Part shown: positions 18,865 to 37,014 of the stretch, in pieces
Numbering within the stretch: the first letter of the stretch is position 1
Layout: every line of letters starts with the position of its first letter
Assembly: GCA_965369805.1 (NCBI GenBank)
Contig: CBDURG010000002.1
Coordinates: 1-37,100 of the forward strand
Source of the DNA: an uncultured bacterium
GTDB lineage: Bacteria > Auribacterota > UBA6266
Length of the DNA stretch: 37,100 bases
Direction: 5' to 3'
Made by a program: the position numbers and the translations under genes
The notes under the pieces: model-generated
Databases searched by the model: none
What the model saw: the letters and a program-made list of their open reading frames with translations, nothing else
What the model was told of the DNA's origin: nothing

Positions 18865-20268
18865 TTATTTCTTCAATAACATTCTCAACTTCTGCATCTG
18901 ATAACGAAGCGCGTGCCTGCTTAATTTGAGAATTTTCGCGGCTTTAGCGACATTACCTTCCGACTTCTTTATCGCGAGTTTGATCAGCCCGGCCTCATAA
19001 TTCGAGACCTCTTCCTGATAATCAATCCCCGATTCCGGAAGTTTCACCGCCGCTTCTTCTTTTACTCTTCTTTTACCCGGCTTTACAATTCCTTCGGGGA
19101 TGCTTTGTAAACCTATCTTATTCGATTTCTCAAGGACAACCGACTTCTCAATAGCATTCTCCAGTTCTGAAACATTTCCGGGCCAACTATATTTAACAAA
19201 CACTTCCTTTACAGAAGGCTCAAAACCATTAATAGCCTTACCCGTAAGGACAGCATATTTCTTTAAAAAATAGTCCATCAAAAAAGGCATATCCTCCTGC
19301 CGTTCTCTTAAAGGAGGGATTTTAATATTTATAACATTAAGCCGATAGAAAAGGTCTTCTCTGCACCTGCCTTTCTCCACTTCCTTTTTCAGATCCCTGG
19401 TTGTCGCGGCAACAACTCTGACGTCAACTTTTATCTCTTTACTGCCTCCGTTCCTGACGCACTTTTGGTATTTAAGAACATTCAACAGCTTTTTCTGAAG
19501 CCTGGCCGGCATATCGCCGACTTCATTAATATACAATGTTCCACTTTGAGCAACCTCAAAACAGGACTTTTTTGATCCCAAAGGGGCGGATACGGCGCTC
19601 TTCTCGTAGCCAAATAGCTCAATTTCAAGAGCTTCATCTGAAACATCCGCGCAGTTCACGCTGAAGAAGGGATTGCCCCCTCTTGCGCTGTGAAAATGCA
19701 GTGCCCGCGCCATAAGTTCCTTGCCCGTGCCGTCCTCACCTTCTATAAGAACAGGTGAAGATGTAGGAGCAACGACATAAATCAGTTTGCAAACTTCCTG
19801 CATCCGACCTGAGTTCCCCACAACTCCCCTGAGGCCTGTTTCATTTGACAGCTCTCCCATAAGCCTTTTATTTTCCAAAATGAGCCTGTTGTGCTCAAGG
19901 CCTCGTTTTACGATTATCAAAAACTCCTCCGGGTCAAACGGTTTTGATATATAGTCAAACGCTCCATCTTTTATCGCCTTCACGGCAAGTTTGGGAGTCG
20001 CGTAAGCGGTAATCATTATAAATTCGGTATCAGGAAAATCCTTTTTCACTCTATTCATAAATTCAAATCCGTCAAGCCCCTTCATCTTCGCGTCAGTAAT
20101 TATGAGATTGAATTTTTCCTTATCACAAATTGAAAGTGCCTGCTCGGCACTCAACGCGGTTACGACACTGTATCCGTTCCTTCTTAAGATAGTACAAAGG
20201 GTTTCAAGCATACCTTTTTCATCATCAACAATCATTATCTTGCTGTTTAAGATATTATTTTTTGCCAT
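18865..20268 (-). CDS. NtrC/PilR-family response regulator (REC-AAA+-Fis HTH) with degenerate sigma54-interaction motif
   Basis: REC domain (VDDE, TDAKM, TAY, KPF), GEDGTGKE, ELFGYEKSAVSAP, LYINE, REDLFYRL, WPGNV, C-terminal HTH. Confidence 0.9.
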   Translation of the reverse strand: MAKNNILNSKIMIVDDEKGMLETLCTILRRNGYSVVTALSAEQALSICDKEKFNLIITDAKMKGLDGFEFMNRVKKDFPDTEFIMITAYATPKLAVKAIKDGAFDYISKPFDPEEFLIIVKRGLEHNRLILENKRLMGELSNETGLRGVVGNSGRMQEVCKLIYVVAPTSSPVLIEGEDGTGKELMARALHFHSARGGNPFFSVNCADVSDEALEIELFGYEKSAVSAPLGSKKSCFEVAQSGTLYINEVGDMPARLQKKLLNVLKYQKCVRNGGSKEIKVDVRVVAATTRDLKKEVEKGRCREDLFYRLNVINIKIPPLRERQEDMPFLMDYFLKKYAVLTGKAINGFEPSVKEVFVKYSWPGNVSELENAIEKSVVLEKSNKIGLQSIPEGIVKPGKRRVKEEAAVKLPESGIDYQEEVSNYEAGLIKLAIKKSEGNVAKAAKILKLSRHALRYQMQKLRMLLKK

Positions 20269-21553
20269 TTTTAAAAACCGTCCTTATTGGAAGGGTGACA
20301 ATCACTTTCGTACCTTTCTTACTGCTTCGCAAAGATATTTCTCCATTATATGTTTCAACTATGGATTTAACAATAGCCAGCCCAAGCCCGGTTCCCTTCG
20401 GCTTTGTTGTCACAAAAGGATCAAAAACCTTATCTTTTAAATCCTCATCTATTCCTTTGCCGGTATCTTTAAAATATATAACAATTCTGTCCGGCGGAGA
20501 AAAATAATCAGTTTCTATACTCAAAGTACCTCCATCCGGCATAGCCTGTTTCGCGTTTGTAACTATATTGGTTATAATCTGCCTCATCTGCAAAACATCA
20601 AAATAGATAGATGGAATATCCTTCCTGTAGTTTCTTATGATTGTAACATTTTCAAGGAATATTTCCGGATTCAGGCTTTCAATTACTTCATCTATACACG
20701 AATTAACATCCACTTTTTCTATCTTTCCTTCAGAAAGGCGGGAATAATTCAACAAGTCGCTGATTATCCTATCGGACCGCATGGTTTCACGTTTTATAAC
20801 TCCAACCTGCTTTTTTGTTAAATCAGAAGATGCTTCAGGAGAATTCTCCAGCAGATACGCCGCATTCATAATTATTCCAAGAGGATTTTTCAGCTCATGG
20901 GCAATGCTCGCGGCAAGCTTTCCCGCAAGCGAAAGCTTTTCCGATCTGAGAGTCATTTCCTGGAATTCTTCGCCTCTCTTCCTCTGATAAACCAAAATAG
21001 TATATATGCCCCAGCAACAAACGCTTACAAGGATAAGAACAGCCACTTTAAGCCAGAAAATCTGGTTTGACAGAAAAGCCGCGGTCTGATCGTGCGAATA
21101 AATAGCAATAATATAAAAAAGTATAAAACTAAGGTTTATCATTGACTGCGTTCTTATGCGGGGAAAATCAACCGCGTTACGTATTATAAGACCGCAGTAC
21201 AGCCAGTAAAACTCGCTTTCAAGGCCCGTCGTAAAATAGATTAAAAAGCTTAAAAACAAATTATCAATTATAGAAAGAAAAAAAGCTGAAAGCTGAACTG
21301 CTTTAAAATTAAATTTTCTCTGCCCGATTTTTATAAGGACAAGCATGAAAAAAAGGTTGCCAAGAACATACATCCAGAACTGATATCTATGAAAAGCGAA
21401 CTTTAATTCATGGGCTTCTCTCACCGACCATAAAAAAAAGGCCAGGATCAGAATCGCAAGGAACTTAGCAGGAAACATTATATATTTTTCAACTATAATT
21501 ATCCTGTGAAAGTGTCTGATTTTTTCGTCTGCGGTAATCCGGATTGCTTTCAT
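20255..21553 (-). CDS. membrane sensor histidine kinase (PilS-like architecture)
   Basis: About 6 N-terminal TM segments with no large periplasmic domain; H-box AHELKNPL, N-box NAKQAM, DTGKGI, FDPFVTTK, GTGLGL. Confidence 0.92.
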   Translation of the reverse strand: MKAIRITADEKIRHFHRIIIVEKYIMFPAKFLAILILAFFLWSVREAHELKFAFHRYQFWMYVLGNLFFMLVLIKIGQRKFNFKAVQLSAFFLSIIDNLFLSFLIYFTTGLESEFYWLYCGLIIRNAVDFPRIRTQSMINLSFILFYIIAIYSHDQTAAFLSNQIFWLKVAVLILVSVCCWGIYTILVYQRKRGEEFQEMTLRSEKLSLAGKLAASIAHELKNPLGIIMNAAYLLENSPEASSDLTKKQVGVIKRETMRSDRIISDLLNYSRLSEGKIEKVDVNSCIDEVIESLNPEIFLENVTIIRNYRKDIPSIYFDVLQMRQIITNIVTNAKQAMPDGGTLSIETDYFSPPDRIVIYFKDTGKGIDEDLKDKVFDPFVTTKPKGTGLGLAIVKSIVETYNGEISLRSSKKGTKVIVTLPIRTVFKNGKK

Positions 21554-21559
21554 GGAAGA

Positions 21560-22357
21560 TTAGGTTCCTTCAACAAGGCTTTTTATGTACTCCTCTGTGG
21601 AATCTTTCGCGGAAATGGAGGTTGCCTCCAATGAACCTGTTACAAACTGCTGAACATAAGGATTGTTTGAATTCTTAATCTGGTCAGAGGTACCAAGCTC
21701 AATCACCCTGCCTTTGAATAAAACAGCCATTTTATCGGCAATCCTGAACGCGCTTTGCATTTCATGAGTTACCACCACGGATGTCATGCCAAGCTTCTTG
21801 CTTAAATCCATGATAAGTTTGTCAATAACAGCGGCAACAATAGGGTCGAGGCCGGCACCGGGCTCATCATAAAAGACTATGTGGGGATCAAGAGCTATAG
21901 CACGGGCAAGAGCCGCTCTTTTTTTCATGCCTCCGCTTATCTCCGCGGGCATTTTATTTTCAAAACCAACAAGCCCTACCTGCGCAATTTTCATTTTAAC
22001 TATTATCCCAATTATGCGTTTATCCAGTTTGGTATGTTCCTTAAGCGGTAAAGCTACATTTTCTCCAAGCGTTAGAGAGTTTAAAAGAGCTCCGCCCTGG
22101 TACAACATACCGAATTTACGCCTGACCACATCAAGCTCGTTGTCAGTCATATGGGTAATCTCATCTCCATCAATATAAACTTCCCCATCATCGGGTTTAA
22201 GCTGTCCGATCAATATTTTGAGCAGCGTGCTCTTGCCGCAACCGCTCCCTCCCATAATCACCATGGTTTGACCCTTTTCTATCTTGAGGTTAATACCATC
22301 AAGTACCCGGCGATTATCGTATATCTTAACCAGATTTTTTACTTCTATTATTGCCAT
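21560..22357 (-). CDS. mlaF: MlaF/Mkl-family ABC transporter ATPase
   Basis: GGSGCGKS, FGMLYQGGALLNSL, ISGGMKKR, YDEPGAGLDP, VVVTHE. Confidence 0.85.
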   Translation of the reverse strand: MAIIEVKNLVKIYDNRRVLDGINLKIEKGQTMVIMGGSGCGKSTLLKILIGQLKPDDGEVYIDGDEITHMTDNELDVVRRKFGMLYQGGALLNSLTLGENVALPLKEHTKLDKRIIGIIVKMKIAQVGLVGFENKMPAEISGGMKKRAALARAIALDPHIVFYDEPGAGLDPIVAAVIDKLIMDLSKKLGMTSVVVTHEMQSAFRIADKMAVLFKGRVIELGTSDQIKNSNNPYVQQFVTGSLEATSISAKDSTEEYIKSLVEGT

Positions 22358-23165: not shown

Positions 23166-23498
23166 CTAAAAAGCATTTATAGCCTCTTCTCTTGTCTTAT
23201 ATATCGAAAAAATTGAATCAAGTTTCGCTATCTCGAATATACCCCTGGTAGCATCATTCATACAGCAAAGCTTAAGGACACCATCATACATGTGCATTTT
23301 TTGAAAAACCTCGATAAGTGTGGCTAAGCCGGCACTGCTAATGTACCCCACATCCGCAAAATCGATAAGCAATTTCTTTTTCTGTTCCTTTAAAATTTCC
23401 GCAAAAAAATCACGTGCCTTAGGAGAAGTATATGAATCAACATCTCCTTTGATCTCGACTATTTCTATTCCTCCGCTGGAGACCCTTTTCAAATCCAT
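23166..23498 (-). CDS. STAS-domain anti-anti-sigma factor (RsbV/SpoIIAA-like)
   Basis: GDVDS, D...V.YISSAGL with the conserved phospho-Ser; start placed at MDLK behind a GGAG RBS. Confidence 0.88.
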   Translation of the reverse strand: MDLKRVSSGGIEIVEIKGDVDSYTSPKARDFFAEILKEQKKKLLIDFADVGYISSAGLATLIEVFQKMHMYDGVLKLCCMNDATRGIFEIAKLDSIFSIYKTREEAINAF

Positions 23499-23569
23499 AA
23501 ACTCTCCTTCCATTTCATTCATCCGCAGCCGGAAATCAACAACCCGGATAAAAAAGCAAACTTACACCC

Positions 23570-23998
23570 CTATGGGCTTTTAAGGCGTTTTACCATTATA
23601 AGTTCATTTCCATCTTCATTATCCAGGTTATACATCACACTATCCATAACTTTTTTCATCAAAAAAATCCCTAACCCGCGTGGTTTTATGTCATCCAACT
23701 TTCTCCCCCAAAGTTTCACAGGGTCGAGTTTTTTTCCATAATCCCCCAACAGAATCTCTATCTCTTCATCCTTCAAAGATAGTTTTACAAAAATATCCTT
23801 TGTTTTATCGCCGCCGTAAGCATGTTCTATAATATTGGCACACGCTTCGTCAACCGCAAGAACCATATCATCTATATCTTTGCGCGGAAACTCCGCGATA
23901 ACAGCAACTTCCCTTATTACTGACCTGATTAGTTTAAGATATTTGTCATCACTTTTCACCTTAAGAATAACTTGATTATGTCCAATATTCACTTCCAT
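23570..23998 (-). CDS. RsbW/SpoIIAB-like anti-sigma Ser kinase (HATPase)
   Basis: LAVDEACANIIEHAY, DYG, RGLGIFLM..VMD, GNELIM. Confidence 0.9.
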   Translation of the reverse strand: MEVNIGHNQVILKVKSDDKYLKLIRSVIREVAVIAEFPRKDIDDMVLAVDEACANIIEHAYGGDKTKDIFVKLSLKDEEIEILLGDYGKKLDPVKLWGRKLDDIKPRGLGIFLMKKVMDSVMYNLDNEDGNELIMVKRLKSP

Positions 23999-24019: not shown

Positions 24020-25342
24020 TCAATGTTTCAATGTTGCAGCGACCAGTGTTAAATCATCATGCTGCGGAGCTCCCTTTGAAAAATCAACAACCTTATCAAG
24101 GATACACTCAATTGCTTTTTCGGGATTAATGTTCCTGTCTTTTATAATATCAAAAAATCTCTTTTTCCCAAACTCTTCCCTGGATATATTTCTCGCTTCA
24201 ATAATCCCATCCGTATAACCGATTATGGTTTCGCCGCCTTTTAACTCCAGAACCGTTTCCCCAAATTTCACATCCGGGACAACCCCAACAGGAAGCGCCT
24301 GCTTACAAACAGCTTCACTGATGTTACCCCTGCCATCGCGAATCAGAAAAGGGTAATGCCCGGCATTCACAGATGTAAGAGTTTTCTGTCTTAAATCAAC
24401 CATACCGATAAGAAGGGTTATAAACATCCCAAGAATGCTTTTCTCCACTAAAATGTTATTTATCTTTTCCATAAGTTTTCCGGGTTTAGCTAAGTTAGCT
24501 AAGAGAGAAGCATGAAATCTTATTTCGCTCATAGCTTTAACCATAAAAAGGGCCGCGGGTACACCCTTTCCCGAAACGTCTCCGACAACAATTCCAACCC
24601 GTCCGGCGCCAAAATCGAGAAAATCATAAAAATCCCCCCCGAGCTCCAGCGCGGGAATGTTTTTTGCGTCAAATAACAAACCGTCATACTCCGGAAATTT
24701 GGAAGACAGAAAATTTTGCTGTATCTGATGTCCAATTTTCAGTTCATCTTCAACTCTTTGCTTTTCAAGGAGACTCGCGTGCATCCTCGCGTTCTCAATC
24801 GCTATGGCAGCCATACTGGAAAAATTTTCCAAAAGCTTCTGGTCTTCTGAATCAAATCCCTTCTTATGTTTGGGGTTCAAGACCTGAAGAACCCCAATTG
24901 TTGTATCCTTTACCTTCAAAGGAACACATAAAACGGCCCGTGTCTTAAACCCTGAATATTCATCAGCTCTTTTAAAATGTCTCGGGTCATTCTCCACATC
25001 ATTTATTAAAACCGGTTTTTTTTCTTTGGCAACCCAGCCGGCTATTCCCTTCCCCAATTCAAGCCTGATTTCTTTCACTTTGTCGCCTGATTTTCCATGA
25101 GCTATCTTAAAAACCAGTTCTTTTGCGCTCTTGTCTATCAGCATAAGAGCGCTTGCTTCTACCTCCATAATTTTTCCCGCAACTTTCATAGCGCGATCAA
25201 GAAGTTCGTCTATATCAAGAGTGGAGTTTATTATCTCACTAACAGCAAACAGCTTCTTGAAATCTGATAATTTCTGCTGTAATTTTTCTAAATTTCTTCC
25301 CTTTTCAGCCGCGTCAGTCAATTCTCTTCCCTTTAACCCCAT
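24020..25342 (-). CDS. GAF-domain PP2C/SpoIIE Ser phosphatase (RsbU-like)
   Basis: N-terminal GAF domain; GGDFYD, GDVSGKG, NAGH, YTDG, DDLT. Confidence 0.92.
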   Translation of the reverse strand: MGLKGRELTDAAEKGRNLEKLQQKLSDFKKLFAVSEIINSTLDIDELLDRAMKVAGKIMEVEASALMLIDKSAKELVFKIAHGKSGDKVKEIRLELGKGIAGWVAKEKKPVLINDVENDPRHFKRADEYSGFKTRAVLCVPLKVKDTTIGVLQVLNPKHKKGFDSEDQKLLENFSSMAAIAIENARMHASLLEKQRVEDELKIGHQIQQNFLSSKFPEYDGLLFDAKNIPALELGGDFYDFLDFGAGRVGIVVGDVSGKGVPAALFMVKAMSEIRFHASLLANLAKPGKLMEKINNILVEKSILGMFITLLIGMVDLRQKTLTSVNAGHYPFLIRDGRGNISEAVCKQALPVGVVPDVKFGETVLELKGGETIIGYTDGIIEARNISREEFGKKRFFDIIKDRNINPEKAIECILDKVVDFSKGAPQHDDLTLVAATLKH

Positions 25343-27251
25343 ATATCCTAACCTTTTTGTCTTTCCCCTTTACTGAAACCTCATCCAGGAAATTTATCTC
25401 AAAATCATCCTTTACACAATTATAAGTTGACTCAGCTACTATAACCCTGTAAGGATATTCCCTTGTAAGAGCCTGAACTCTCGATGCAAGATTTACATTA
25501 TCCCCGACAACAGTATAGTCATAGAACCGGCTTGAACCCATATTTCCAACCATCATAAGCCCGGTATTGATCCCAATTCCAATGCCTATAGGCTCAATCC
25601 CTTTTTCAACAAATTCCCTTTGAAGTACCTTCAGTTCTTCGAGCATATCAAGGGCGGCAAGAACCGCGAGTTTCGCATGGCCTTTTTGTTCTACCGGAGC
25701 ATTCCAAAAAGCCATAATTTCATCACCAATATATTTATCAAATGTCCCATCATGTGAAAGTATAACCCTGGTCATCCTGTCCAGGTATTCGTTAAGCACC
25801 GGAACTACCTCTTCAGGGGCTTTTTTCTCACAATAAGGAGTAAAACCCTTAATATCGGCGAACAACACTGTAATATCCTTCCTTTCACCGTGAAGATTCA
25901 ACTTTGAGGGATCCCGCAAAAGCATTTCCATTATATTATTTGAAATATACCGTCCAAGGATTTTCTTAACATACTTTTTATCTTTTGACTCAACCATATA
26001 TTTGTATACAACAGCGCTTCCAAAACAGATGCTCATAGCCGTATATGGAGCAACAATATCTATATACAAATTATGGTTTATAAAAAACCAGAAAGCAGCT
26101 AATATAAACCCCGCGACAAAAACAACCGAACATGTAACATAAAACCATGCCCTATCGGAAAGTTGAATAAAACCGACAGCACCGGAAAGCAATAAAATTA
26201 TCAGCAGGTTCCACGCAAAAAGAGGATTTTTTATATAATCCTTTAAAAGCACTGTATTCAAAGCATTGGCATGAATAAGCAATAACGGGAACTTCTCCGG
26301 TGAAATAGGAATGAGGCCTATATCATATCCGCCTGTCATACCAACACCGTAAATAACCATCTTCTCAGAATAATCTAATAAAGGAACAACCGGGGGTTTA
26401 CCCTCTGACATTAACTTGTCTGAATTTAATATCTGTATCGCGGGATCTCCCTTAAATTCTTTTAAACCACCCCGAAAATTAATCCTCAAATTCCCGCGTT
26501 TATCAACAGGAATTTTTATGTCGGTGCCGGAGATAGAAATAACACCTTTCTCAATTCTTATATCAGATATTTCTTTATTCAAGAACCTGCAAAGAAGCAC
26601 GAGGGAAAAAGAAGGATAAACACTCCCGGAATATTTTATAAGCAATGGCGCTTTTCTAACCACGCCGTCAGATTCCTCGGGAGCATTGGTGAAGCCCAGT
26701 AATCCACAATTTCTCAGCTCAGCAACAGGAAGCTGATAACTCTCTGCCCCTGGAATTTTGTTTACAAAATCATCATTAACAATATTCAGCCGGTACTTGT
26801 CCAGAGTCCCATCCGATTCCTCTTTAATATAGTCCCTATAATAAATCCCTTTGTCATCTTGTTTCATTCTGAAATAATAGGGCAAGATAGTTCTTCCTGT
26901 AAGGGATGTACAATATTTAAGCGCCTCAAGACCTTTTTTCTGACTCTCGTATGATTCAAATCTTATATCAACGCCAACCGCCGCGACATTTGTCCGGGCC
27001 AGAAAATTTAAAACCCCGGCATGATTAATCCATGGCCACGGCCATTTATCACCGCGCTGGACAGACTGGTCGTCAACAACAATTATTCTTATAGTATCGG
27101 AAATATTTTCCCCCACACCCATTTTCATCATATAGTCATAAAAAATATTCTTGAAGTGACGAATAGGAGGAGTAAGGCAAAAAAGATACCCTGAAAGGGC
27201 AGAAAGAATCGGTATTATTAAGCATATCACTAATATTTTTGATTTCTTCAT
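25314..27251 (-). CDS. CHASE2-domain class III adenylate cyclase
   Basis: N-terminal TM, CHASE2 (WPWP, DGVVR, HANALN), 3 TMs, then the catalytic domain FADIKGFT, DKYIGD, DYTVVGD.VNLASR. The Lys/Thr specificity residues point to ATP. Start moved to MKKSK at 27251 because the longer ORF overlaps the divergent gene. Confidence 0.9.
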   Translation of the reverse strand: MKKSKILVICLIIPILSALSGYLFCLTPPIRHFKNIFYDYMMKMGVGENISDTIRIIVVDDQSVQRGDKWPWPWINHAGVLNFLARTNVAAVGVDIRFESYESQKKGLEALKYCTSLTGRTILPYYFRMKQDDKGIYYRDYIKEESDGTLDKYRLNIVNDDFVNKIPGAESYQLPVAELRNCGLLGFTNAPEESDGVVRKAPLLIKYSGSVYPSFSLVLLCRFLNKEISDIRIEKGVISISGTDIKIPVDKRGNLRINFRGGLKEFKGDPAIQILNSDKLMSEGKPPVVPLLDYSEKMVIYGVGMTGGYDIGLIPISPEKFPLLLIHANALNTVLLKDYIKNPLFAWNLLIILLLSGAVGFIQLSDRAWFYVTCSVVFVAGFILAAFWFFINHNLYIDIVAPYTAMSICFGSAVVYKYMVESKDKKYVKKILGRYISNNIMEMLLRDPSKLNLHGERKDITVLFADIKGFTPYCEKKAPEEVVPVLNEYLDRMTRVILSHDGTFDKYIGDEIMAFWNAPVEQKGHAKLAVLAALDMLEELKVLQREFVEKGIEPIGIGIGINTGLMMVGNMGSSRFYDYTVVGDNVNLASRVQALTREYPYRVIVAESTYNCVKDDFEINFLDEVSVKGKDKKVRIYGVKGKRID

Positions 27252-28791: not shown

Positions 28792-29510
28792 TGTTCGTTT
28801 TTCTAAGACTTGCACTTGCCCATTTCCTTGCTGACTTTCCGTTTCAGACTTCAGAAATTTATAATCTGAAAAGAAGAAGGTTGCGGGGCCGGATCTTTCA
28901 CGGAACAATTGTAGCAATAATGTCTTTTGTTCTTCTACTGCCTTTCTATAAAAACATATGGGTATGGGGAATCTGCCTCTTTATAGGGATAACACATTCT
29001 TTGATCGACTGGGCAAAACTGGTGTACACGGATAAGAAACAGAATGCGAACCATTTTCTGGGTTTTATAATTGACCAATCAGCTCACCTTACAATAATTT
29101 CTATTATCTTTTTAACACCTTTAAAAAACATTGTTTCAGCAAATATGCCAAATCTAACGATCAATACTATTTACAATAATAACATTTATATAATTCACGC
29201 AATTTGTTATATCGCCGTCACTTTTGGTTTTATATATTTTATCGATACTTTCAGGATGACCTATTTAAAAAGCATTTACAAACCATTGGACACAAAAGAA
29301 AAGGCCATTGGAATTATAGCAAGAGGAATCATCCTTACGCTGGTTGTCCTCCCTGGGGATTTTTACCTGGCAATTGTCCCGGTTATATTAGCTGAAACAT
29401 ATTTGCTAAAATCAGCTGATTTAAAATCAAGGTTTGCTAATTTTATTATCGGAACAATCCCCGTTATTATCATAGGATTACTGCTAAGGGGCCTAGGGGC
29501 AAGGGGATAA
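28791..29510 (+). CDS. DUF3307-family membrane protein
   Basis: LAHFLADFPFQ, H..I, THSLID..K, F..DQ.AH; overlaps the upstream stop (TAATG). Confidence 0.75.
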   Translation: MFVFLRLALAHFLADFPFQTSEIYNLKRRRLRGRIFHGTIVAIMSFVLLLPFYKNIWVWGICLFIGITHSLIDWAKLVYTDKKQNANHFLGFIIDQSAHLTIISIIFLTPLKNIVSANMPNLTINTIYNNNIYIIHAICYIAVTFGFIYFIDTFRMTYLKSIYKPLDTKEKAIGIIARGIILTLVVLPGDFYLAIVPVILAETYLLKSADLKSRFANFIIGTIPVIIIGLLLRGLGARG

Positions 29511-29577: not shown

Positions 29578-30471
29578 CTAACTCTGTCTTACCAGGTATC
29601 CTCTTTCAAATTCTCCGCCCGCGATAATTTTAGCTTTGGAAAATTTTTCCTCAACAGCATACACCTGAACTCTTCCAGTCTTTTCCGATTCGCATCCCAA
29701 ACTGATACCTGTGTCAGGGTCAATCAAATCTTCCCCAACCGAATATATGGCAAACTCATCTCCAACCTGAACGCCTGAGTCCGCGCCACAGTTTAAATAA
29801 ACATCCTCTCCTTTTACAGTAACAACCTTTCCCTGCCAGGAAACATTTTCAAGCTCAGCGCAAATCCATGCTATTGCCACATCAATAGCAGCCTGTGTCG
29901 CTTTGCCAAGAGGCGCTTTTTTAAAATTGGAGGTTCCAATTCCCCAGCCTGAACGCGCATAACCTATACTCATGCCGGAGGACTTGGCCTTTCCTTCAAC
30001 CCTTTTTGATGCAAGAACCTGGCCGGTGGCCACATCATAAAGCCTCACATTAACCGCAACATGCGCAAAAGAACCCGAGCCTCCAAGGGAAAACCCTTTT
30101 ATTGTGATGCCGGCACCGCCCCCTGAACTTCTTTCAGAAAATTCTGTTACCGCTCCGCTCACAAGTACCTGGGCATTCAACAGTTTCCCAAGTTCTGGAG
30201 CACCAACTTTGGTTGTCCTTCCACTTGCAGAAAAATCCTGTTCCTGAAGGATACCCTGAATATTCTGCCTTTCCACGACAATAAAACTGCCCGAATTGGT
30301 AAGGGAAGTGGTAACCATTTCTGCCATACCGCTGCCAAGATTCCATTCGGAACTGAACCCCGCTTTATTTTCAAAATCAGAAACTGCTATGGTTTTCTTT
30401 ATGCCGGCACCGGCATAAGAAACCAAAAGAACAAAAACCAAAACAAAGATGCATGATAAAAACCTTTTCAT
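29578..30471 (-). CDS. CsgG/HfaB-family protein with FlgT-like C-terminal domain (paralog 2)
   Basis: IAVSDFENK, F.VVER..I..IL.EQ, GAVTEF, V.VRLYDV.TG.V; C-terminal VYLN.G...GV..GD.F......LIDP.TG..LG. Confidence 0.8.
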   Translation of the reverse strand: MKRFLSCIFVLVFVLLVSYAGAGIKKTIAVSDFENKAGFSSEWNLGSGMAEMVTTSLTNSGSFIVVERQNIQGILQEQDFSASGRTTKVGAPELGKLLNAQVLVSGAVTEFSERSSGGGAGITIKGFSLGGSGSFAHVAVNVRLYDVATGQVLASKRVEGKAKSSGMSIGYARSGWGIGTSNFKKAPLGKATQAAIDVAIAWICAELENVSWQGKVVTVKGEDVYLNCGADSGVQVGDEFAIYSVGEDLIDPDTGISLGCESEKTGRVQVYAVEEKFSKAKIIAGGEFERGYLVRQS

Positions 30472-30534: not shown

Positions 30535-31590
30535 CTATTGAATTATTACTTCTTCAAGCACTGGCGGCGGAGGTGGCAGAAATTTAATTATATCTCCCCT
30601 CTCAAATTTTCCGCCCGAAACAGAATCCGCAAGCGAAAACTTATCCTTAACTTCAAAAACCTTAACCAATCCTATTTTTTTTGTCTCAAAACCAAGAGAC
30701 ACTCCTGAATCAGGATCAATAAGCTCCTCGCCCTTTCTGTAAACCTCAAATTCATCACCGGCTTTAACATTGGAACTCGCGCCGCAATTAAGATATATTT
30801 TACCGCCTTTGATAGTAACAACAGTACCTTGCCATGAAACCTTCTGCATCTCCAAGCAGATATAATAAACAGCTTTATCAATCGCTTGTTGAGTTACCTT
30901 ACCAAGAGGAGACGCTTTAAAGTTATCAAAATCAATGCCCCAATCACCTTCAGAATAACCAACGCTAAGGCCTGAAACATTCCCCTTGCCTTCAACACGC
31001 TTAGAAGCAATTACTTCACCGGTAGTAGTATCATACATCCTTATATTAAGGGCCACATGAGCAGTGGCTGATTTTACCCCCAGAGAAATCCCTTTATATT
31101 GAAAAAGACTTCCAGAATCAAAAAAACGCTGTGAAAATTCTGTTATGGCTCCGCTTACAAGAATCTGGGTATTTAAAAGGCGCCCTATCTCAGGTGCTCC
31201 GACATTAATTGTCCTGCCGCTTACAGAAAAATCCTGTTCCTGAATAATAGCCTGGATATTCTGGCGTTCAACAACAATAAATCTGTTCGTGTTCACCAGA
31301 GTAGTGGTAAGCATCTCTGCCATACCGTTTCCGAGATTCCACTGCGCTTGAGCCCCTGCCTTATTCTCAAAATCGGCAACCGCTACAGTCTTTCTCGGCC
31401 CAACAATAGGAGGAAGCACTATCTGCTGGCTAACTTTCTTTTTCTTCTTTTCCCGGGCCGGCCTTTCTTTTCGCTCAGAAGATGACGTTCTTCTTCTCGC
31501 GGCAGCGGCAGCGGCACCATCAAGGCCGATAACAGCAACAATCAAAAAAGACATCCCCACTATAAAAAACCATCTTTTCATAAACAGCAT
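30535..31590 (-). CDS. CsgG/HfaB-family protein with FlgT-like C-terminal domain (paralog 1)
   Basis: Same motifs as 29578-30471, plus a basic N-terminal extension and a poly-Pro C-terminal tail; start placed at MLFMKRW behind an AGGGG RBS. Confidence 0.8.
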   Translation of the reverse strand: MLFMKRWFFIVGMSFLIVAVIGLDGAAAAAARRRTSSSERKERPAREKKKKKVSQQIVLPPIVGPRKTVAVADFENKAGAQAQWNLGNGMAEMLTTTLVNTNRFIVVERQNIQAIIQEQDFSVSGRTINVGAPEIGRLLNTQILVSGAITEFSQRFFDSGSLFQYKGISLGVKSATAHVALNIRMYDTTTGEVIASKRVEGKGNVSGLSVGYSEGDWGIDFDNFKASPLGKVTQQAIDKAVYYICLEMQKVSWQGTVVTIKGGKIYLNCGASSNVKAGDEFEVYRKGEELIDPDSGVSLGFETKKIGLVKVFEVKDKFSLADSVSGGKFERGDIIKFLPPPPPVLEEVIIQ

Positions 31591-31670
31591 CTTAATACCC
31601 CTATAGGTTCTTAGCACACCACAAATTATATACAGATGAATACACCATTCAATATAAAAATGTTACAGTC

Positions 31671-32804
31671 TTATAAAAAATCTAAATCTATCCTGTTTTG
31701 AGTTTTTGCCTTAATTTTTACATCAACATCGGGAAGGGTATTTATTATCTCTTCAAAACCTTTATATAATGCCCCGTCAATTGTTACATCTATAATCACG
31801 ACATCCTTTGTAAAACTTCTTTCGTTTACGCTTCTTACGCCCCTGACCTGCTCAAGTGCCTTCTCAAAAGCAAGGCGGTTATCGGCGTCAGCATGAAAGC
31901 CAACAATCTGAATATCCATTGTATTGTAAACTTTGGTTCTCCAGTTTTCAACTATTTGGTCCATCATTTTCCCTGCCAGCTCCACACCTGCTTCCTTGGC
32001 TGCTTTGCGCGCCGAAGGGACTCTTCCTCCAGCCCTTGCCTGGGCACTGGTACCGTCTGAAACTATAACCTGGGCAGAATCAACATCAATAGCTTTTGCG
32101 GTAGCCTGCGCTTCATAGGCAAAGACACAAACGCCATAGGGCTGGCTGGAATCAACTAAATCGGAAGAGACCTGTCCAACCACAATAACCTCAGCTCCGA
32201 ACCTCCTGCCAAGAGCAACAGCTTCCGTAGGATTTTCATAGTAAACAGTAGCATCCCGTAATTTCACGGCTTCCATTTGAGCTTTATCTATCAGTTTAAA
32301 ATCGTTGTTTAAAAAACTCTTTTCTATTCCGGTTTGAACCGTTTGTCCGGGTTGTTCAAGGCCATCTACGGTCTCAGAAAAAACAATCATGATTCTGGGT
32401 TTGTTAAGCCTTTCCTTGACTATATTAAAAGCTTTAAGGTTCTTTCTTAGGGCACCCAGTAAAACAACAGCTTTAACCCTTGCTTGATAAACCCCTCCTT
32501 CACCATTATTATCATCTACAATTTCATAACTCTTCACATATCCTTTTACCTCTGAATAAACCTGGTCATCCAGCAGCTGAAAATTCTGGACCATAGTTTC
32601 AGAATCAATAAGGCTGCCCACCGCCTGTTCCACAGCATTCCTTAAAGCACGGTTAATCGCCTCATCTCTCGCACTGAGAACAGCATCCGGGCCAGCCCCC
32701 CTTACGGCAGCCATGCCCTTCGCCACTATAGTAGTCTCCATCTGAGCAAAAACGCAAGTTGTTACAAATATACAAACGAAAAATAATAATATTAACCGTT
32801 TCAT
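31671..32804 (-). CDS. exported FlgT N-terminal-domain-like protein (FlgT_N + TolB_N/CsgG-like middle domain + small C-terminal domain)
   Basis: Signal peptide; A.G.A...ARDEAI..ALRNAVEQAVG..IDSET.V.N; KPRIMI; GAEVIVVG. Confidence 0.7.
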   Translation of the reverse strand: MKRLILLFFVCIFVTTCVFAQMETTIVAKGMAAVRGAGPDAVLSARDEAINRALRNAVEQAVGSLIDSETMVQNFQLLDDQVYSEVKGYVKSYEIVDDNNGEGGVYQARVKAVVLLGALRKNLKAFNIVKERLNKPRIMIVFSETVDGLEQPGQTVQTGIEKSFLNNDFKLIDKAQMEAVKLRDATVYYENPTEAVALGRRFGAEVIVVGQVSSDLVDSSQPYGVCVFAYEAQATAKAIDVDSAQVIVSDGTSAQARAGGRVPSARKAAKEAGVELAGKMMDQIVENWRTKVYNTMDIQIVGFHADADNRLAFEKALEQVRGVRSVNERSFTKDVVIIDVTIDGALYKGFEEIINTLPDVDVKIKAKTQNRIDLDFL

Positions 32805-32815: not shown

Positions 32816-32941
32816 CTATTCGACAACAACTTCTCTTGTTTCAACCACGGTTCTTTCGGTAACAACATACTTTTCGGTACATCCCACAATTACAATTGAA
32901 ATAACAGAAAACAAAACTATCAAAATTACAGCCTTTTTCAT
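32816..32941 (-). CDS. small 41-aa lipoprotein (not in ORF track)
   Basis: MKKAVILIVLFSVISIVIVG|CTEKYVVTERTVVETREVVVE*; GAGGGG RBS and lipobox IVGC; fills the gap in the operon and its stop overlaps the next gene's RBS. Confidence 0.8.
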   Translation of the reverse strand: MKKAVILIVLFSVISIVIVGCTEKYVVTERTVVETREVVVE

Positions 32942-32997: not shown

Positions 32998-34302
32998 TTA
33001 TCTGATTTTGTTTATGGAATCCCATAAACCCCGCAAGAAAATTGAAGCTGTTACCTCAACGCTTCCATCCTCAAGAAAAACAGGCTCGCTTACCTCCGCA
33101 CCTGCCATAAAAGTTTTGACTTCCGCATTCACCTGGTCATTTTGAACAGCAAAATCCCTGACAGTTGTACTCGCGTTAATCTTTACTCCATAAATAATCT
33201 CAGCAAGATTTCTTCTTGCGTCTACCTCAGCCGCCCTGGCCGCATTAAGCTTTGCAATGGTCCCGATCTCACCTTCTCTCGGAACCCCAGAACCTTTGGC
33301 TGACACAGCCTGAGAAGCCCAGGAAGGCGCGGAAACAGCTTGGGAAGGAGCCTGAGACACAGGCCCCTTCTCTGTATATTTCTCCGGAGGAACACCGGAA
33401 CCAGTCGCTCTTATCACGCGAATATTCTGCTGAGTTACAACCTCTTCCCACCTTACTTTCTTCCATCTCACTTTTCTAAATCTATAGCCTCTTCTTTCAA
33501 AGCGTTTCCATATTTCATGAACTTCTTTTATTATATCCACTATAGTTACTTCAACATCACATTCAGCTATTCCGTCAGGCAAATATCTATACGGACCTGA
33601 CAAACGAATGCCTTTTATATATGTGTCCAGTGCCGCATTTATCTGATCATTCTCTGCCACAAAGTCTCTGACATAAGTACTCGAAGTGATTCTTACTCCC
33701 TTAACCTTTTCAGCGAGATTTCTGTACGCGTCAACCTTTGCAGCTCTTTCAGCCATCAACCTGCCGCGAGCTGTAACTCCTTCCCAGCCGGGTATCCCAT
33801 CAGTAAGCCTGGCAGGTTTAGTCCGCGAATTCTCAGAAGGATCAACGGTTCTGATCGTCCCCGAACCTTCAACCTCTATCACCTTATACTCCTTGTTGTA
33901 AGTCTCTATCTGCTGAATTTTTGTGTGCGTCCAGAAGAGAAACCTTGTTTTCTTATAGTATGTTTCAATAAATTTGACTACCTGTTCTATCGTAAGCCCG
34001 GCTCTTAAAGTGTAAACTTCACCATCCCATCTATCGCTCCCCGGAACAATGGCAGCACCTTTTATAAAATGATCAAACGATGCATTGATCTGGTCACTTT
34101 CCGCGACAAAATCCCTGACATAGGTATTAGCGTCTATTCTAAGCCCTTTCACTCTTTCAGCAAGATTTCTATAGGCATCAACCTTTGCCGCCCTTTCAGC
34201 CATAAGCTTCTGCTGCCCCTTGGATGCAGCACAAACCGGCATACAAACCAGAGGAATAATCAAACTCGCCATCAAAACCACTACTCCTAATTTCCTCAAC
34301 AT
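32998..34302 (-). CDS. exported protein with three LPP20/FlgP-like repeats
   Basis: Three copies of [LMAERAAKVDAYRNLAE.VKG.RI...TYVRDFVAE.DQINA....IKG]; signal peptide; start placed at MLRK behind a GGAGGA RBS. Confidence 0.8.
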   Translation of the reverse strand: MLRKLGVVVLMASLIIPLVCMPVCAASKGQQKLMAERAAKVDAYRNLAERVKGLRIDANTYVRDFVAESDQINASFDHFIKGAAIVPGSDRWDGEVYTLRAGLTIEQVVKFIETYYKKTRFLFWTHTKIQQIETYNKEYKVIEVEGSGTIRTVDPSENSRTKPARLTDGIPGWEGVTARGRLMAERAAKVDAYRNLAEKVKGVRITSSTYVRDFVAENDQINAALDTYIKGIRLSGPYRYLPDGIAECDVEVTIVDIIKEVHEIWKRFERRGYRFRKVRWKKVRWEEVVTQQNIRVIRATGSGVPPEKYTEKGPVSQAPSQAVSAPSWASQAVSAKGSGVPREGEIGTIAKLNAARAAEVDARRNLAEIIYGVKINASTTVRDFAVQNDQVNAEVKTFMAGAEVSEPVFLEDGSVEVTASIFLRGLWDSINKIR

Positions 34303-34375
34303 TTCATCCTCCTTCATTACCATAGGTTATCGATTGTGGGTTATAGGTTCCAGGGAATACAAATTTCCCTTGACC

Positions 34376-34873
34376 CTAATTAGGTTTCATTCCTAACCAT
34401 TCCTGTTCACTTACTACAAAAGCTTTTCTGTTAACTGAAATCAATTCATCATTATAAACCTTTATACCCTCTCTTTTGCAAACTCTTTTTTTACTAATTC
34501 CAGGCATTTCCAGAATAATCTGAACCATTCCGTCTTTGTAATATCTTGTTTCTACACATCTTGCGCCAATTATATATCCATTTGATTTTATGTTGCCCGA
34601 CTTTATAACCCTACCTGAAAAACCAGCAAGGGCCCGGGTAAGATTCCTATAAGCGTCAATGAGTGCCGCCCGGCGAGCCATAAGCTTCTTTTGAGATTTC
34701 CCATAATACGAAGATGCCGGAGGCTTCCCCGTACCAACAACTCTTATCTTCCCTCCCTCAACTATAACACAATTCAATGAGAATAATCTTTCATCTCCCA
34801 GGACATCTTCAGGGAAGAGGCAGGTGCCGCAAAAAGCGGCACCCAGAACTAATGTGATTATAAGCTTTTTCAT
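34376..34873 (-). CDS. exported protein with one LPP20/FlgP-like domain
   Basis: V.GTG.P...KLMARRAALIDAYRNL...GYIIGA...RY..DG.V.I matches the repeats of the downstream gene. Confidence 0.7.
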   Translation of the reverse strand: MKKLIITLVLGAAFCGTCLFPEDVLGDERLFSLNCVIVEGGKIRVVGTGKPPASSYYGKSQKKLMARRAALIDAYRNLTRALAGFSGRVIKSGNIKSNGYIIGARCVETRYYKDGMVQIILEMPGISKKRVCKREGIKVYNDELISVNRKAFVVSEQEWLGMKPN

Positions 34874-34877
34874 AAGA

Positions 34878-35231
34878 TTACCACCAACAATTGTTTTCTT
34901 CTACAACTACAACAGGGGCAGAATAGTTAGTAGCATATGTAGTTGTATACGTTGTGTATGAAGGGACATAATACGTGTTTGAAGAACGGTACCTTCTCGA
35001 TGAATAATGCCTTGGTGTTTGATAATAACGTCTTGAACGTCTTGGCGCGTAATATGAGGAACTATAATATGCTCTCTGCTGTGGAAGTAAATTCCCGCTT
35101 AAAAACTGATACGCTGTAACTCCTGCAAGTATTTTGCCTGCTGTTGCCCATTCTTTCTCTCCCGCTGAAGCAGTTGTAGTAACTCCTGTTGCCATTGATA
35201 CTGCAACCAACATTAAAATTAGCTTTTTCAT
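34878..35231 (-). CDS. secreted Tyr/Ser/Arg/Thr-rich low-complexity protein
   Basis: AGGAGG RBS, signal peptide ending ASA, GEKEWATAGKILAG helix, then a Tyr-rich tract and C-terminal PVVVVEENNCWW. Confidence 0.8.
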   Translation of the reverse strand: MKKLILMLVAVSMATGVTTTASAGEKEWATAGKILAGVTAYQFLSGNLLPQQRAYYSSSYYAPRRSRRYYQTPRHYSSRRYRSSNTYYVPSYTTYTTTYATNYSAPVVVVEENNCWW

Positions 35232-35261: not shown

Positions 35262-35277
35262 AGCAAAAGCCATGCCA
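35262..35277 (-). promoter_or_regulatory. sigma54 (-24/-12) promoter
   Basis: Minus strand reads TGGCATGGCTTTTGCT, i.e. TGGCA...TTGC with exact GG-N10-GC spacing, 30 nt upstream of the 35231 ATG. Confidence 0.85.
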
Positions 35278-35388: not shown

Positions 35389-35406
35389 GTTGCATTCTGG
35401 AGCAAC
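35389..35406. promoter_or_regulatory. candidate enhancer (UAS) GTTGC-N8-GCAAC
   Basis: Inverted repeat about 110-130 bp upstream of the -24 element, between the divergent genes. Confidence 0.45.
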
Positions 35407-35514
35407 GCCGGATAGAATATACGATATAATCCCTTATGAAATAGATAGTTATAGAATATTGCTTCAAAATGACACACATCACATAATGAAACATGTTGAA
35501 AAAGGAAATTGACG

Positions 35515-37014
35515 ATGGAAACAAAACAAACCACTGAACTTTTTAAAGATATCGGAAAAACAAACCTTCTAAAACTTTTTGAAATAAATCAGATCATAAA
35601 TTCGACTCTGGACCTTACAGAAGTCCTGGAACGAGTACTGAAAACGGCCAGTAATGTTTTAAATTCTGAAGCAAGTTCTATAATATTGATTGAAAAAAAC
35701 ACTAATTATCTTGCATTTAAAACAGTTACCGGTAAAAAGGCAACCGAAATAAAGAATTTTAAGATAAAGGCTGGACAGGGAATTGCAGGATGGGTAATAA
35801 ATGAAGGGAAACCTACCATCTCCAATAATGTCCAGGAAGATAAACGATGGTTCGGAGATATAAGTAAGAAAATAAATTACCCAACACGTTCAATTATCTG
35901 CGCCCCCATAAAGATAAGAGAGCAAATAGTTGGAGTAATAGAAGTTATCAATAACAAATCCGGCAACTTCAATGATAAAGACCTTTCTTTGCTAGTCGCA
36001 TTTACAAACCAGGCGGCTATCGCCATTGAAAATGCCCGCCTTCACAATGAAATAGGAATAGAAGTCAAAAACTTGAAAACCCAAATACCCCAGTCAACAA
36101 AAATGATAGGCTCAGGCAATAAAATGAAGAGCGTTTATGAACTAATAAATACCGTCGCGGGAACTGACTCTACCATATTGATTCGAGGTGAAAGCGGCAC
36201 CGGCAAAGAACTCGCCGCAAGGATGATCCACATAAAAAGCCCAAGGAAACATCACCCCTTCATATGTATCAATTGCTCTGCTCTACCGGAAACATTGCTT
36301 GAAAGCGAACTCTTTGGACATGAGAAAGGCGCTTTTACAGGAGCTGTTGCCAGGAAAATAGGAAGATTTGAGCTTTGCGCAAAAGGAACTATTTTCCTGG
36401 ATGAAATCGGAACGCTATCACCCCATATCCAGGTAAAACTTTTAAGGGTTCTGCAGGAAAAAGAATTTGAAAGGGTAGGCGGAACAGAAACTATAAGATC
36501 CGAGGCCCGCATAATTGCGGCTACCAACGAAAACCTCGAGAAAGCAATCGAGGAAGGACGTTTCAGGGAAGACCTGTATTACAGAGTAAAGGTAATAGAA
36601 CTTTACATGCCTCCGCTAAGAGAACATAAGGAAGATATCCCCGACCTGCTTACATACCTTATTGAAGAACAGACAAAAGCTATGGGAAAAGTAATAACGT
36701 CAATAGAACCCAGGGCAATGGATATTCTTCTTTCATACAGCTGGCCCGGAAATATCAGAGAGCTTAAAAATACAGTCGAGAGGGCCATGGTCCTGGGAAC
36801 AGGTAAAATTCTCAAAGCAGAAGACCTTCCTGCCGAAATAAGGTCAAAACGCGCCCCAATAACAACTGATTGGATGTTAAAATCTGCTGAAAAAAATCAC
36901 ATAGAAAAAGCTGTTCAATATACAACCGGCAACAAGAGTAAAGCAGCCAAACTTCTCGGAATTTCCAGGAACAGGCTAGATAGAAAAATTAGGGAATACA
37001 ATATCAAAATCTGA
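35515..37014 (+). CDS. GAF-domain sigma54-dependent transcriptional activator (NifA/FhlA-like bEBP)
   Basis: N-terminal GAF domain; GESGTGKE, ESELFGHEKGAFTGA, FLDEIG, FREDLYYR, WPGNIREL; Fis HTH GNKSKAAKLLGISR. Confidence 0.93.
   Translation: METKQTTELFKDIGKTNLLKLFEINQIINSTLDLTEVLERVLKTASNVLNSEASSIILIEKNTNYLAFKTVTGKKATEIKNFKIKAGQGIAGWVINEGKPTISNNVQEDKRWFGDISKKINYPTRSIICAPIKIREQIVGVIEVINNKSGNFNDKDLSLLVAFTNQAAIAIENARLHNEIGIEVKNLKTQIPQSTKMIGSGNKMKSVYELINTVAGTDSTILIRGESGTGKELAARMIHIKSPRKHHPFICINCSALPETLLESELFGHEKGAFTGAVARKIGRFELCAKGTIFLDEIGTLSPHIQVKLLRVLQEKEFERVGGTETIRSEARIIAATNENLEKAIEEGRFREDLYYRVKVIELYMPPLREHKEDIPDLLTYLIEEQTKAMGKVITSIEPRAMDILLSYSWPGNIRELKNTVERAMVLGTGKILKAEDLPAEIRSKRAPITTDWMLKSAEKNHIEKAVQYTTGNKSKAAKLLGISRNRLDRKIREYNIKI

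Follow-up and report, generated by a model that had tools for sequence, protein, structure and literature searches.

Whether adjacent regulatory and exported-protein genes form a single signaling module is the question raised by the locus described here. The window is a 37,100-nucleotide stretch (GenBank assembly GCA_965369805.1, contig CBDURG010000002.1, positions 1 to 37,100) from an uncultured bacterium of the phylum Auribacterota. It contains four sub-clusters: an operon headed by a sigma54 promoter and encoding exported proteins with FlgT-, LPP20/FlgP- and CsgG-like domains; a divergent gene for a bacterial enhancer-binding protein (bEBP) with a GAF domain; a FecR-LPP20 gene followed by a DUF3307 gene; and a CHASE2 adenylate cyclase gene followed by a predicted GAF-PP2C partner-switching set. 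The original prediction, made from the sequence alone, had joined these parts into one cyclic AMP (cAMP) circuit. We found that the four sub-clusters are a real, conserved Auribacterota module, with a linkage well beyond chance juxtaposition; of this, the domains, the promoter, the conserved gene order and the co-occurrence were observed directly. That cAMP wires the ring operon, the GAF-bEBP, the FecR-LPP20/DUF3307 pair and the CHASE2 cyclase with its partner switch into one circuit is a tentative reading, to which we give somewhat less than even weight.

The source is a metagenome-assembled genome (MAG) of 1.79 Mb in 174 contigs, 88.9% complete (labeled G000; the window is its contig C2). 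The phylum sample consisted of 79 Auribacterota species genomes, with families labeled f1, f3 and so on, genomes labeled G and loci labeled L. Gene order and co-occurrence were established by searching fetched loci with the window proteins (tblastn) and by phylum-wide searches. Domains were assigned with Pfam, together with NCBIfam, Foldseek searches of AlphaFold2 (AF2) models and alignments, and the domains claimed earlier across the locus were confirmed in this way. The features of the module are given below with their strands.

35509..37014 (+): GAF - sigma54 AAA+ - HTH_8 enhancer-binding protein, divergent from the operon (Pfam and sequence)
35447..35471 (-): 25-bp upstream element CATTTTGAAGCAATATTCTATAACT, a candidate enhancer (upstream activating sequence), two copies in the assembly
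35262..35277 (-): sigma54 -24/-12 promoter TGGCATGGCTTTTGCT, the sole TGGCAYN5TTGCW match in 37.1 kb
34878..35231 (-): 117-aa exported protein with a leader, a Gly-zipper-like segment and a Tyr/Ser/Arg-rich tail with a CWW end (sequence)
34376..34873 (-): exported protein of 165 aa with a single helix motif like that of LPP20/FlgP, KKLMARRAALIDAYRNL (sequence)
32998..34323 (-): exported protein of 441 aa, LPP20/FlgP-type domains in triplicate (Pfam LPP20, three stretches, 63.4 bits)
32816..32941 (-): 41-aa putative lipoprotein, leader with an IVGC end (lipobox by inspection; conserved in f1)
31671..32804 (-): 377-aa FlgT-like three-domain protein (AF2 model with a predicted local distance difference test score, pLDDT, of 76; Foldseek)
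30535..31617 (-): 360-aa CsgG-like protein with FlgT_C (Pfam CsgG, 125 bits)
29578..30471 (-): 297-aa CsgG-like protein with FlgT_C, paralogue of the 30535..31617 gene (Pfam CsgG, 142 bits)
28791..29510 (+): DUF3307 membrane protein; its start overlaps the FecR-LPP20 stop (Pfam)
27466..28791 (+): exported protein with a FecR-fold domain and two LPP20-type domains (Pfam, orthologue and AF2 fold)
25314..27251 (-): CHASE2 domain, three transmembrane segments (by inspection) and class III adenylate cyclase (Pfam)
24020..25342 (-): GAF domain with SpoIIE/PP2C phosphatase (Pfam SpoIIE, 144.6 bits)
23570..23998 (-): RsbW-type serine kinase, HATPase_c_2 (Pfam, 97 bits)
23166..23522 (-): STAS protein with the Ser context YISSAGL kept (Pfam, 64.3 bits)

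Distribution and gene order in Auribacterota

The FecR-LPP20 gene followed the operon closely through the phylum. It was present in 32 of the 36 operon-positive genomes and in none of the 43 operon-negative genomes; counted by family, both were found in nine, the operon only in two (besides a weak match in f13) and FecR-LPP20 only in none. The two lay within ~5 kb of each other in f1, f8, f10, f18 and f20 (11 genomes), and a shorter FecR-LPP20 gene was convergent to the FlgT-like and CsgG-like genes in six loci labeled Omnitrophota or Planctomycetia. The DUF3307 gene was found downstream of FecR-LPP20 in f1, f3, f10, f11, f18, f20 and one Omnitrophota locus. Toward the cyclase, FecR-LPP20 stood head-to-head at a distance of at most ~650 bp in 23 of the 32 genomes, from six families; the gap was 2.8 kb in G060, and two of the 32 genomes had contig ends at the pair.

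GAF-PP2C orthologues were found in 33 of the 79 genomes, all of them cyclase-positive, and the gene stood directly behind the cyclase gene in 13 (6/6 in f1 and 7/7 of those found in f11); the RsbW-type kinase gene was downstream of PP2C in G031 too. Close GAF-bEBP orthologues (at least 48% identity) were present in 25 genomes, again all cyclase-positive, and the bEBP gene flanked the operon in 16 genomes from five families (f1, f3, f10, f11 and f18), with four more cases at contig ends. The possibility, raised with the original prediction, that the sub-clusters never occur together is contradicted by this co-occurrence and synteny across several Auribacterota families.

The cyclase itself was distributed more widely, with CHASE2 cyclases in 53 of the 79 genomes, operon-less families included. 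In f6 and f16, the CHASE2 cyclase follows an Alginate_exp-type porin and one or two Pfam FecR proteins without LPP20 (L035:6653-11661, L036:5328-14236 and L037:6872-11767). Because the f6/f16 cyclase pairs with an LPP20-less FecR protein, the FecR/CHASE2 pairing is generic, and the addition of LPP20 tracks the structure. Just downstream of this FecR/CHASE2-cyclase operon, on the opposite strand, lies a sigma54 promoter, which heads a gene for a very acidic protein of 75-77 aa in L035 and L036; the matching open reading frame (ORF) in L037 was not resolved. In G041, from the flagellated family f7 (L079:154-6631), the CHASE2 cyclase gene comes directly after several flagellin-like genes, with no adjacent FecR gene.

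Sigma54 promoters, GAF domains and the FecR/CHASE2 pair

The prediction of a consensus sigma54 promoter heading seven exported-protein genes held, and no second strict match lies in the window; the leaders of the seven proteins were judged by inspection. By chance, 0.06 matches would be expected in the window, and at least one match was obtained in 6 of 100 shuffles. The promoter is followed, ~30 nt on, by a ribosome-binding site (AAGGAGG) and the start codon ATG (35231). TGGCA[CT]-N5-TTGC upstream of the operon was conserved in ten fetched loci (the window, L011, L012, L014, L016, L018, L026, L030, L020 and L022), and G060 had the promoter too. The strict pattern was not found in L013 or in the Omnitrophota/Planctomycetia loci, and L024 had a weak 8/10 match.

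Across the whole source genome, there were only three strict sigma54 matches, located at the operon, at C53:11227 and at C78:6644. The one on C53, TGGCATGGCTCTTGCT, differs from the operon promoter at a single one of 16 positions and heads a locus (C53:9388-11414, L083) with genes for an 83-aa Tyr/Arg-rich exported protein with a VVWW end, a 284-aa exported protein with PDZ and a weak LpoB-like match, and a 178-aa protein. The 117-aa operon protein and the 83-aa protein were considered as paralogues, but this was dropped, as their BLASTP match was not significant (E 0.89); the likeness is compositional. The 25-bp element occurs just twice in the 1.79-Mb assembly at up to 4 mismatches, one copy at -194 relative to the -24 element of the operon promoter and the other at -187 relative to that of the C53 promoter, and it forms a conserved block in the f1 intergenic alignment. 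Written as CATTTTGAA.CAATAT, the upstream element has loose recurrences ahead of promoters in L011, L014 and L025, to which we give no weight.

The C78 promoter heads dnaK-groES-groEL, just after a gene pair for a histidine kinase and a REC-bEBP (C78:4329-9284), and the heat-shock chaperones seem, from this arrangement, to be under sigma54/two-component control. The window encodes another REC-AAA+-HTH regulator, which has SAVSAP in the GAFTGA position and, because of this replacement, probably cannot contact sigma54. Since this regulator carries SAVSAP and the C78 promoter lies beside its own response regulator-bEBP, elimination leaves the GAF-bEBP as most likely the natural activator of the operon promoter and probably also of the C53 promoter.

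In the GAF-bEBP, the Sigma54_activat domain scored 235.8 bits and the GAFTGA loop is intact; rpoN is present on contig C52. Two related GAF domains, on a PP2C phosphatase and on an intact bEBP, had been predicted, and we found these domains to be 41% identical (BLASTP E 4e-50) and mutual best paralogues in the genome. Their nearest solved structures were PDE5 (1.4e-20) and 5w10 (1.2e-19) for the bEBP GAF and CyaB2 (3.8e-32) and 5w10 (8.6e-25) for the PP2C GAF; 5w10 we take to be the GAF domain of Leptospira Lcd1. GAF domains that do not bind cyclic nucleoside monophosphates (cNMPs) scored weaker, at best 7.7e-10 with the PP2C GAF and 1.9e-7 with the bEBP GAF, and those of Nlh, DevS, PtsP and NifA were far weaker matches to both than the cNMP-binding GAFs. 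By sequence class, therefore, both domains are of the PDE/CyaB type, as proposed, with cNMP-binding GAFs as their nearest solved sequences, and are putative cNMP sensors. Anabaena CyaB2, Leptospira Lcd1 and the phosphodiesterases (PDEs) PDE2/5/10 are thus the known cAMP GAF effectors closest to the window proteins; in the window, by contrast, GAF is joined to a sigma54 AAA+ activator in one protein and to a PP2C phosphatase in the other as the output. A review on this subject names Lcd1 and Tlr0485 as cAMP-sensing GAF proteins (PMC8846402), and a limited literature search found no description of a cAMP-GAF sigma54 activator.

A third related GAF domain is present in the genome, on an HD-type protein of C40. 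The other sensors of the genome, with domains assigned by eye, include on C40 (10763-11254) a GAF of the PDE type, carried by a protein with an HD domain and a PilZ-like tail; the rest are a CHASE2-PP2C protein (C58:79-912), a transmembrane-GAF-PP2C protein (C16:11729-12088) and a GAF-ANTAR protein (C1:13718-14206).

The cyclase matched CHASE2 (PF05226, 126.6 bits, 1.7e-36) and Guanylate_cyc (PF00211, 102 bits, 3.3e-29), and it is the sole PF00211 match in the assembly. By inspection, the CHASE2 domain, taken to be periplasmic, has a transmembrane helix on its N-terminal side and a transmembrane bundle after it. The listed ORF (25314-27545) opens with a GTG inside the neighboring gene, and the likely start, judging from the sequence, is the Met of MKKSKIL at 27251. 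The best PDB match was Pseudomonas aeruginosa CyaB (3r5g, 3.6e-36). The motifs FADIKGFT, KYIGDEIMAF and YTVVGDNVNLASR align with those of CyaB and are invariant across ten orthologues; we presume that they supply the two metal-binding Asp residues, the substrate Lys and Asp/Thr, and the transition-state Asn and Arg. On this alignment, the catalytic motifs of a class III cyclase are intact and the protein is assigned as an adenylate cyclase. The genome also holds one small cNMP_binding protein (163 aa).

The FecR-like protein encoded divergently from the cyclase was expected to carry the LPP20 domain of the operon. This was verified: its C-terminal LPP20 domain is 40% identical to repeat 3 of the triple-LPP20 operon protein (E 1.7e-12), and the FecR assignment was reached through an orthologue and an AF2 fold. 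In Pfam, the window protein matched LPP20 only, at 24.3 bits, just under the cut-off of 25.9. Its orthologue in G014 (36% identity across the full length) matched both FecR (41.6 bits, cut-off 24) and LPP20 (26.3 bits). The AF2 model of the window protein (pLDDT 82) had as best matches the FecR-family periplasmic domains 4m0n and 4m0h, with a root mean square deviation of 2.7 Å over 131 columns, and it also matched PupR (6ovk, FecR family) and Lpp20 (5ok8), with the FecR-type matches at probability 1.0. The NCBIfam hits to the FecR part were Lsa33 and LipL45 only, far below threshold. Judged by this model, the window protein carries a FecR-type beta fold.

FecR/CHASE2 gene pairs have been described before: the consulted parts of two papers report a LysM-FecR and CHASE2 kinase gene pair in Burkholderia BiofilmReg (PMC5192318) and a CHASE2 adenylate cyclase with a FecR protein, a PDE and a TPR protein in Campylobacterota (PMC9239204). 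The window resembles these systems in that a gene for an exported FecR-domain protein lies beside one for a CHASE2 membrane sensor, and the Campylobacterota output is likewise an adenylate cyclase; it differs in that the window FecR protein has two LPP20 domains homologous to those of the adjacent operon and tracks that operon, and in that no PDE or TPR gene is adjacent. The earlier statement that no described system has this composition must accordingly be narrowed, as the FecR/CHASE2 neighborhood is already in print and the new element is the regulatory wiring between the parts.

In the set behind the cyclase, the PP2C protein, the HATPase_c_2 kinase and the STAS protein stand in one row, as in RsbU/RsbW/RsbV and SpoIIE/AB/AA, and the Ser in YISSAGL is presumably the equivalent of the SpoIIAA/RsbV phospho-Ser. 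By their sequences, the three proteins are a partner-switching set. Compared with the known modules, the input is different (a PDE-type GAF behind a cyclase) and no sigma factor target is evident.

The exported operon

Seven same-strand ORFs follow the promoter, from 35231 to 29578, once the 41-aa ORF at 32816-32941 is counted; they encode proteins of 117, 165, 441, 41, 377, 360 and 297 aa, all with hydrophobic N-terminal leaders by inspection. Neither the 117-aa nor the 165-aa protein had a Pfam match. Small leader-bearing, Tyr/Pro/Arg-rich counterparts of the 117-aa protein hold the first operon slot in four families (f1, f8, f10 and f18). They have a Gly-zipper-like stretch, W.AAG...G.V.GA..AD, and a tail with a variable end (CWW, CYY, CY or C); examples are found in the window (34878-35231), L011:16874-17158, L014:16340-16657, L016:2301-2621 and L013:2619-2948. 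A Tyr-rich first gene was absent in the f3, f7 and f11 loci. Homologues of the 165-aa protein were present in most orthologous loci, and the triple-LPP20 protein had a match in 25 of 41 relatives.

The FlgT-like protein was the best conserved component, with a mean column identity of 57% (13 sequences) and a homologue in 36 of the 79 genomes. Foldseek revealed 8z5n_0, from the LPHT ring, as the top match of its model (E 1.9e-12), followed by FlgT 3w1e (1.8e-10), both over ~390-400 columns; the TM-scores of the FlgT matches were low (0.30-0.36) and the identity was 11%. The lower-ranked matches were, in order, GNA1162, PelC, CsgG, HpaA and the TolB N-domain. In Pfam, the protein reached 17.1 bits with FlgT_N, under the cut-off of 28.8, and did not match FlgT_M or FlgT_C; in NCBIfam, it hit LipL46 only, far below threshold. 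When its profile was compared with the PDB, the sole match was 9hmf_C, with residues 29-109 of the protein (the N-terminal SHS2 domain) aligned end to end with residues 84-163 of 9hmf_C. From the entry, we take 9hmf_C to be Campylobacter jejuni FlgP, although the tool does not state this. According to PMC12222027, FlgP builds the concentric rings of the basal disk, and ring formation in the FlgP family accompanies an insertion that separates the SHS2 helix from the second strand. In the 377-aa protein, the corresponding segment (residues 69-86) is nearly invariant, yet it has low confidence in the monomer AF2 model.

Both CsgG-like proteins cover Pfam CsgG (PF03783) almost entirely. The true start of the 360-aa protein is probably, from its sequence, the internal Met of MKRWFF. 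Neither protein has a lipobox Cys after the leader by inspection, and the NCBIfam CsgG equivalog NF011731, which has a cut-off of 505 bits, gave scores of 36 and 28.

The proposed circuit, its alternatives and the neighboring genes

A circuit can be proposed in which the FecR-LPP20 protein would have two binding partners, the FlgP-like polymer for its LPP20 domains and CHASE2 for its FecR domain, so that the state of the envelope structure would tune cAMP synthesis. The cAMP would bind both paralogous PDE/CyaB-type GAF domains. One of these, when bound, would switch the bEBP and thereby transcription of the genes for the ring and for the Tyr-rich proteins, while the other would switch the PP2C phosphatase and thereby the phosphorylation state of the STAS protein. 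The bEBP would probably drive the C53 promoter too, given the 25-bp element common to both promoters and the second Tyr-rich exported protein. In this scheme, we infer every protein-protein and protein-ligand contact, the sign of regulation and the closure of the loop.

The chief alternative is that the genes are adjacent but signal in other ways: the FecR-LPP20 protein (with DUF3307) would be a ring subunit or assembly part, CHASE2 would sense another periplasmic cue, and the GAF domains would bind a non-cNMP ligand as in NifA, NorR and FhlA. We regard this as possible but doubtful, and several of the observations that weigh against the cAMP circuit favor it. Five genomes labeled Omnitrophota or Planctomycetia have the operon and FecR-LPP20 with CHASE2-region matches on other contigs only and no cyclase-domain match, and no cyclase or bEBP was found within 10 kb of the operon in the loci so labeled; FecR-LPP20 can therefore work without this cyclase. 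Within Auribacterota, FecR-LPP20 was not beside the cyclase in six genomes (five operon-positive f7 genomes and f8), and in G020, G042 and G036 of f7 the cyclase sits with ddl and has no adjacent FecR gene. Close bEBP orthologues (52-56% identity) lie beside glmS, ligA and accD in operon-less f6 and f16, so the bEBP is not exclusively tied to the ring operon. Also in favor of the alternative, the best NCBIfam whole-protein model of the bEBP was NifA (5.6e-123, below the cut-off). Other observations weigh against the cAMP circuit: 15 operon-positive genomes had no GAF-bEBP match on the operon contig, several of these contigs being short; G060 has the block with no bEBP match at E<=1e-90; and the window protein had no match to Pfam FecR (PF04773), even at E<=1. 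The NKFDE motif (NK..F..D) is a mark of cNMP-binding GAF domains; it is kept only in part in the window GAFs, whose sequence class is no proof of ligand. Moreover, relatives inherit gene order, so that counts of genomes overstate independence and the family is the safer unit. However, the alternative does not readily account for the head-to-head arrangement of FecR-LPP20 and cyclase in six families, the position of GAF-PP2C directly behind the cyclase in two families, the far greater nearness of both GAFs to cNMP-binding GAFs than to those of NifA, DevS and Nlh, the confinement of close bEBP and PP2C orthologues to cyclase-positive genomes, or the sigma54 promoter beside the FecR-CHASE2-cyclase operon of f6 and f16.

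Two further alternatives concern the product of the operon. One is a curli-like export apparatus in place of a static ring, in which the two CsgG-like proteins would make an outer-membrane channel for export of the small Tyr-rich protein from the first operon gene, with the FlgT/FlgP-like proteins as periplasmic scaffold; it is compatible with the proposed regulation, and we consider it unlikely. The strong Pfam CsgG matches over nearly the full model, the Tyr/Pro/Arg-rich protein in the first slot in four families and the C53 promoter, which shares the upstream element and heads a Tyr-rich exported protein followed by the PDZ/LpoB-like protein, speak for it. They are offset by the missing lipobox Cys, the equivalog scores far below cut-off, the absence of the Tyr-rich gene from f3, f7 and f11 and the lack of significant similarity between the two Tyr-rich proteins; compared with curli CsgG, the window proteins also carry an extra FlgT_C and have no csgA/B/E/F neighbors. 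The other is a flagellar reading, with accessory motor rings (H-ring or basal disk) as the operon products and the bEBP as a FlrA/FlgR-type regulator of flagella. With the Vibrio H-ring (FlgT, FlgP and FlgO) and the Campylobacter basal disk (FlgP) the operon has several features in common: the best fold matches are 8z5n, with FlgT as part of the Vibrio LPHT ring, and 3w1e, FlgT alone, with the same three-domain fold, FlgP/LPP20-type SHS2 domains are present in the operon proteins, all proteins are exported, and the genes are sigma54-dependent, as are many flagellar genes. The operon is also found in flagellated Auribacterota, with f7, f12, f5 and f14 FlgI-positive, and the FecR-LPP20 gene of f7 lies 19-27 kb from flgI. 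Nevertheless, FlgI, present in 15 of the 79 genomes and confined to those four families, was found in none of six f1 genomes (87-96% complete), and FlhA and flagellin were found in none of five genomes (G000, G001, G002, G004 and G014). Among operon-positive genomes, 13 of 36 had FlgI and 23 did not, and none of the 16 with the bEBP beside the operon had it. In addition to the low TM-scores and identity and the FlgT_N score below cut-off, the window differs from the flagellar rings in that LPP20 is triplicated in one chain and two CsgG-like proteins replace FlgO. The portion of PMC9324843 consulted likewise gives flagella to Ca. Auribacter fodinae only among the MAGs compared, and not to the Ace Lake Auribacterota MAGs. 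The flagellar reading was rejected for this lineage and is highly improbable. A literature search for the LPP20/CsgG/FlgT combination returned flagellar papers only, and the main text of PMC9324843, as far as consulted, does not mention CsgG, curli, LPP20, adenylate cyclase or sigma-54, although its supplementary tables may list such genes.

Since the lineage has no flagellar genes, the operon most likely gives rise to a non-flagellar ring or channel, periplasmic or at the outer membrane. Such a FlgT/FlgP/CsgG envelope structure is widespread in phyla related to the Planctomycetes-Verrucomicrobia-Chlamydiae (PVC) group but uncharacterized. Returning to the cAMP circuit, its strongest form would be a trans-envelope feedback without described precedent, in which FecR-LPP20 reports ring or channel assembly to the cyclase, cAMP acts through GAF domains and not CRP, the bEBP is the first cAMP-gated example, the second GAF gates the PP2C partner switch, the ring is a flagellar outer-disk module re-wired after loss of the flagellum, and the channel may export the Tyr-rich proteins; we consider this form speculative and improbable as a whole. 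If the wiring is true, the locus would provide a testable case in which cAMP controls transcription by way of a GAF-sigma54 activator and not CRP, would suggest a ligand-level role for the enigmatic CHASE2/FecR pair, and would suggest a regulatory handle on this widespread structure of PVC-related phyla. Although the organism is uncultured, E. coli could serve as a heterologous host for testing each link.

Beyond the partner-switching set, the following genes continue on the minus strand.

22365-23156 (-): MlaE permease (Pfam, 253 bits)
21560-22357 (-): MlaF-like ABC ATPase, ABC_tran (Pfam)
20255-21553 (-): histidine kinase, HisKA and HATPase_c (Pfam)
18865-20268 (-): REC, Sigma54_activat and HTH_8 regulator (Pfam)

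In E. coli, MlaB is a STAS protein, and the window STAS gene abuts mlaE-mlaF. Among the fetched loci, however, the stretch of STAS, MlaEF, histidine kinase, response regulator and pilin genes lies beside the cyclase in f1 only; MlaD and MlaC were not found in the window, and the rest of the genome was not searched for them. The MlaEF branch of the original circuit is thus weak. Its extension to pilin control was not supported either, with the degenerate GAFTGA of the REC-AAA+ regulator and no sigma54 consensus upstream of the pilin gene, by eye or by pattern. The histidine kinase and the REC-AAA+ regulator are probably a separate PilS/PilR-like pair by the pilin gene (18228-18716), and the Mla, two-component and pilin genes look like family-specific neighbors. 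A Wzy_C (O-antigen-ligase-like) and TPR protein (16083-18122, minus strand) adjoins this type IV pilin gene (N_methyl and DUF1559) and may be a pilin glycosylation enzyme.

The remainder of the window (1-15620) encodes a Dpy19-like membrane protein, a B12-radical SAM enzyme, pyruvate kinase, GMP synthase, a MarR regulator with an OEP/HlyD/AcrB efflux set, and a D-Ala-D-Ala carboxypeptidase with a peptidoglycan-binding domain; no link of these genes to the module was evident. In f10 and f18 (L011:1-6647, L013:11912-18379 and L014:250-7416), a DUF3108 exported protein, Pfam-confirmed in L011 only, is encoded downstream of the cyclase, and it is followed by hldE-, gmhB-, kdsB-, pyrG-, kdsA- and kdsD-like genes, which, from N-terminal sequence only, have the look of lipopolysaccharide heptose/Kdo genes.

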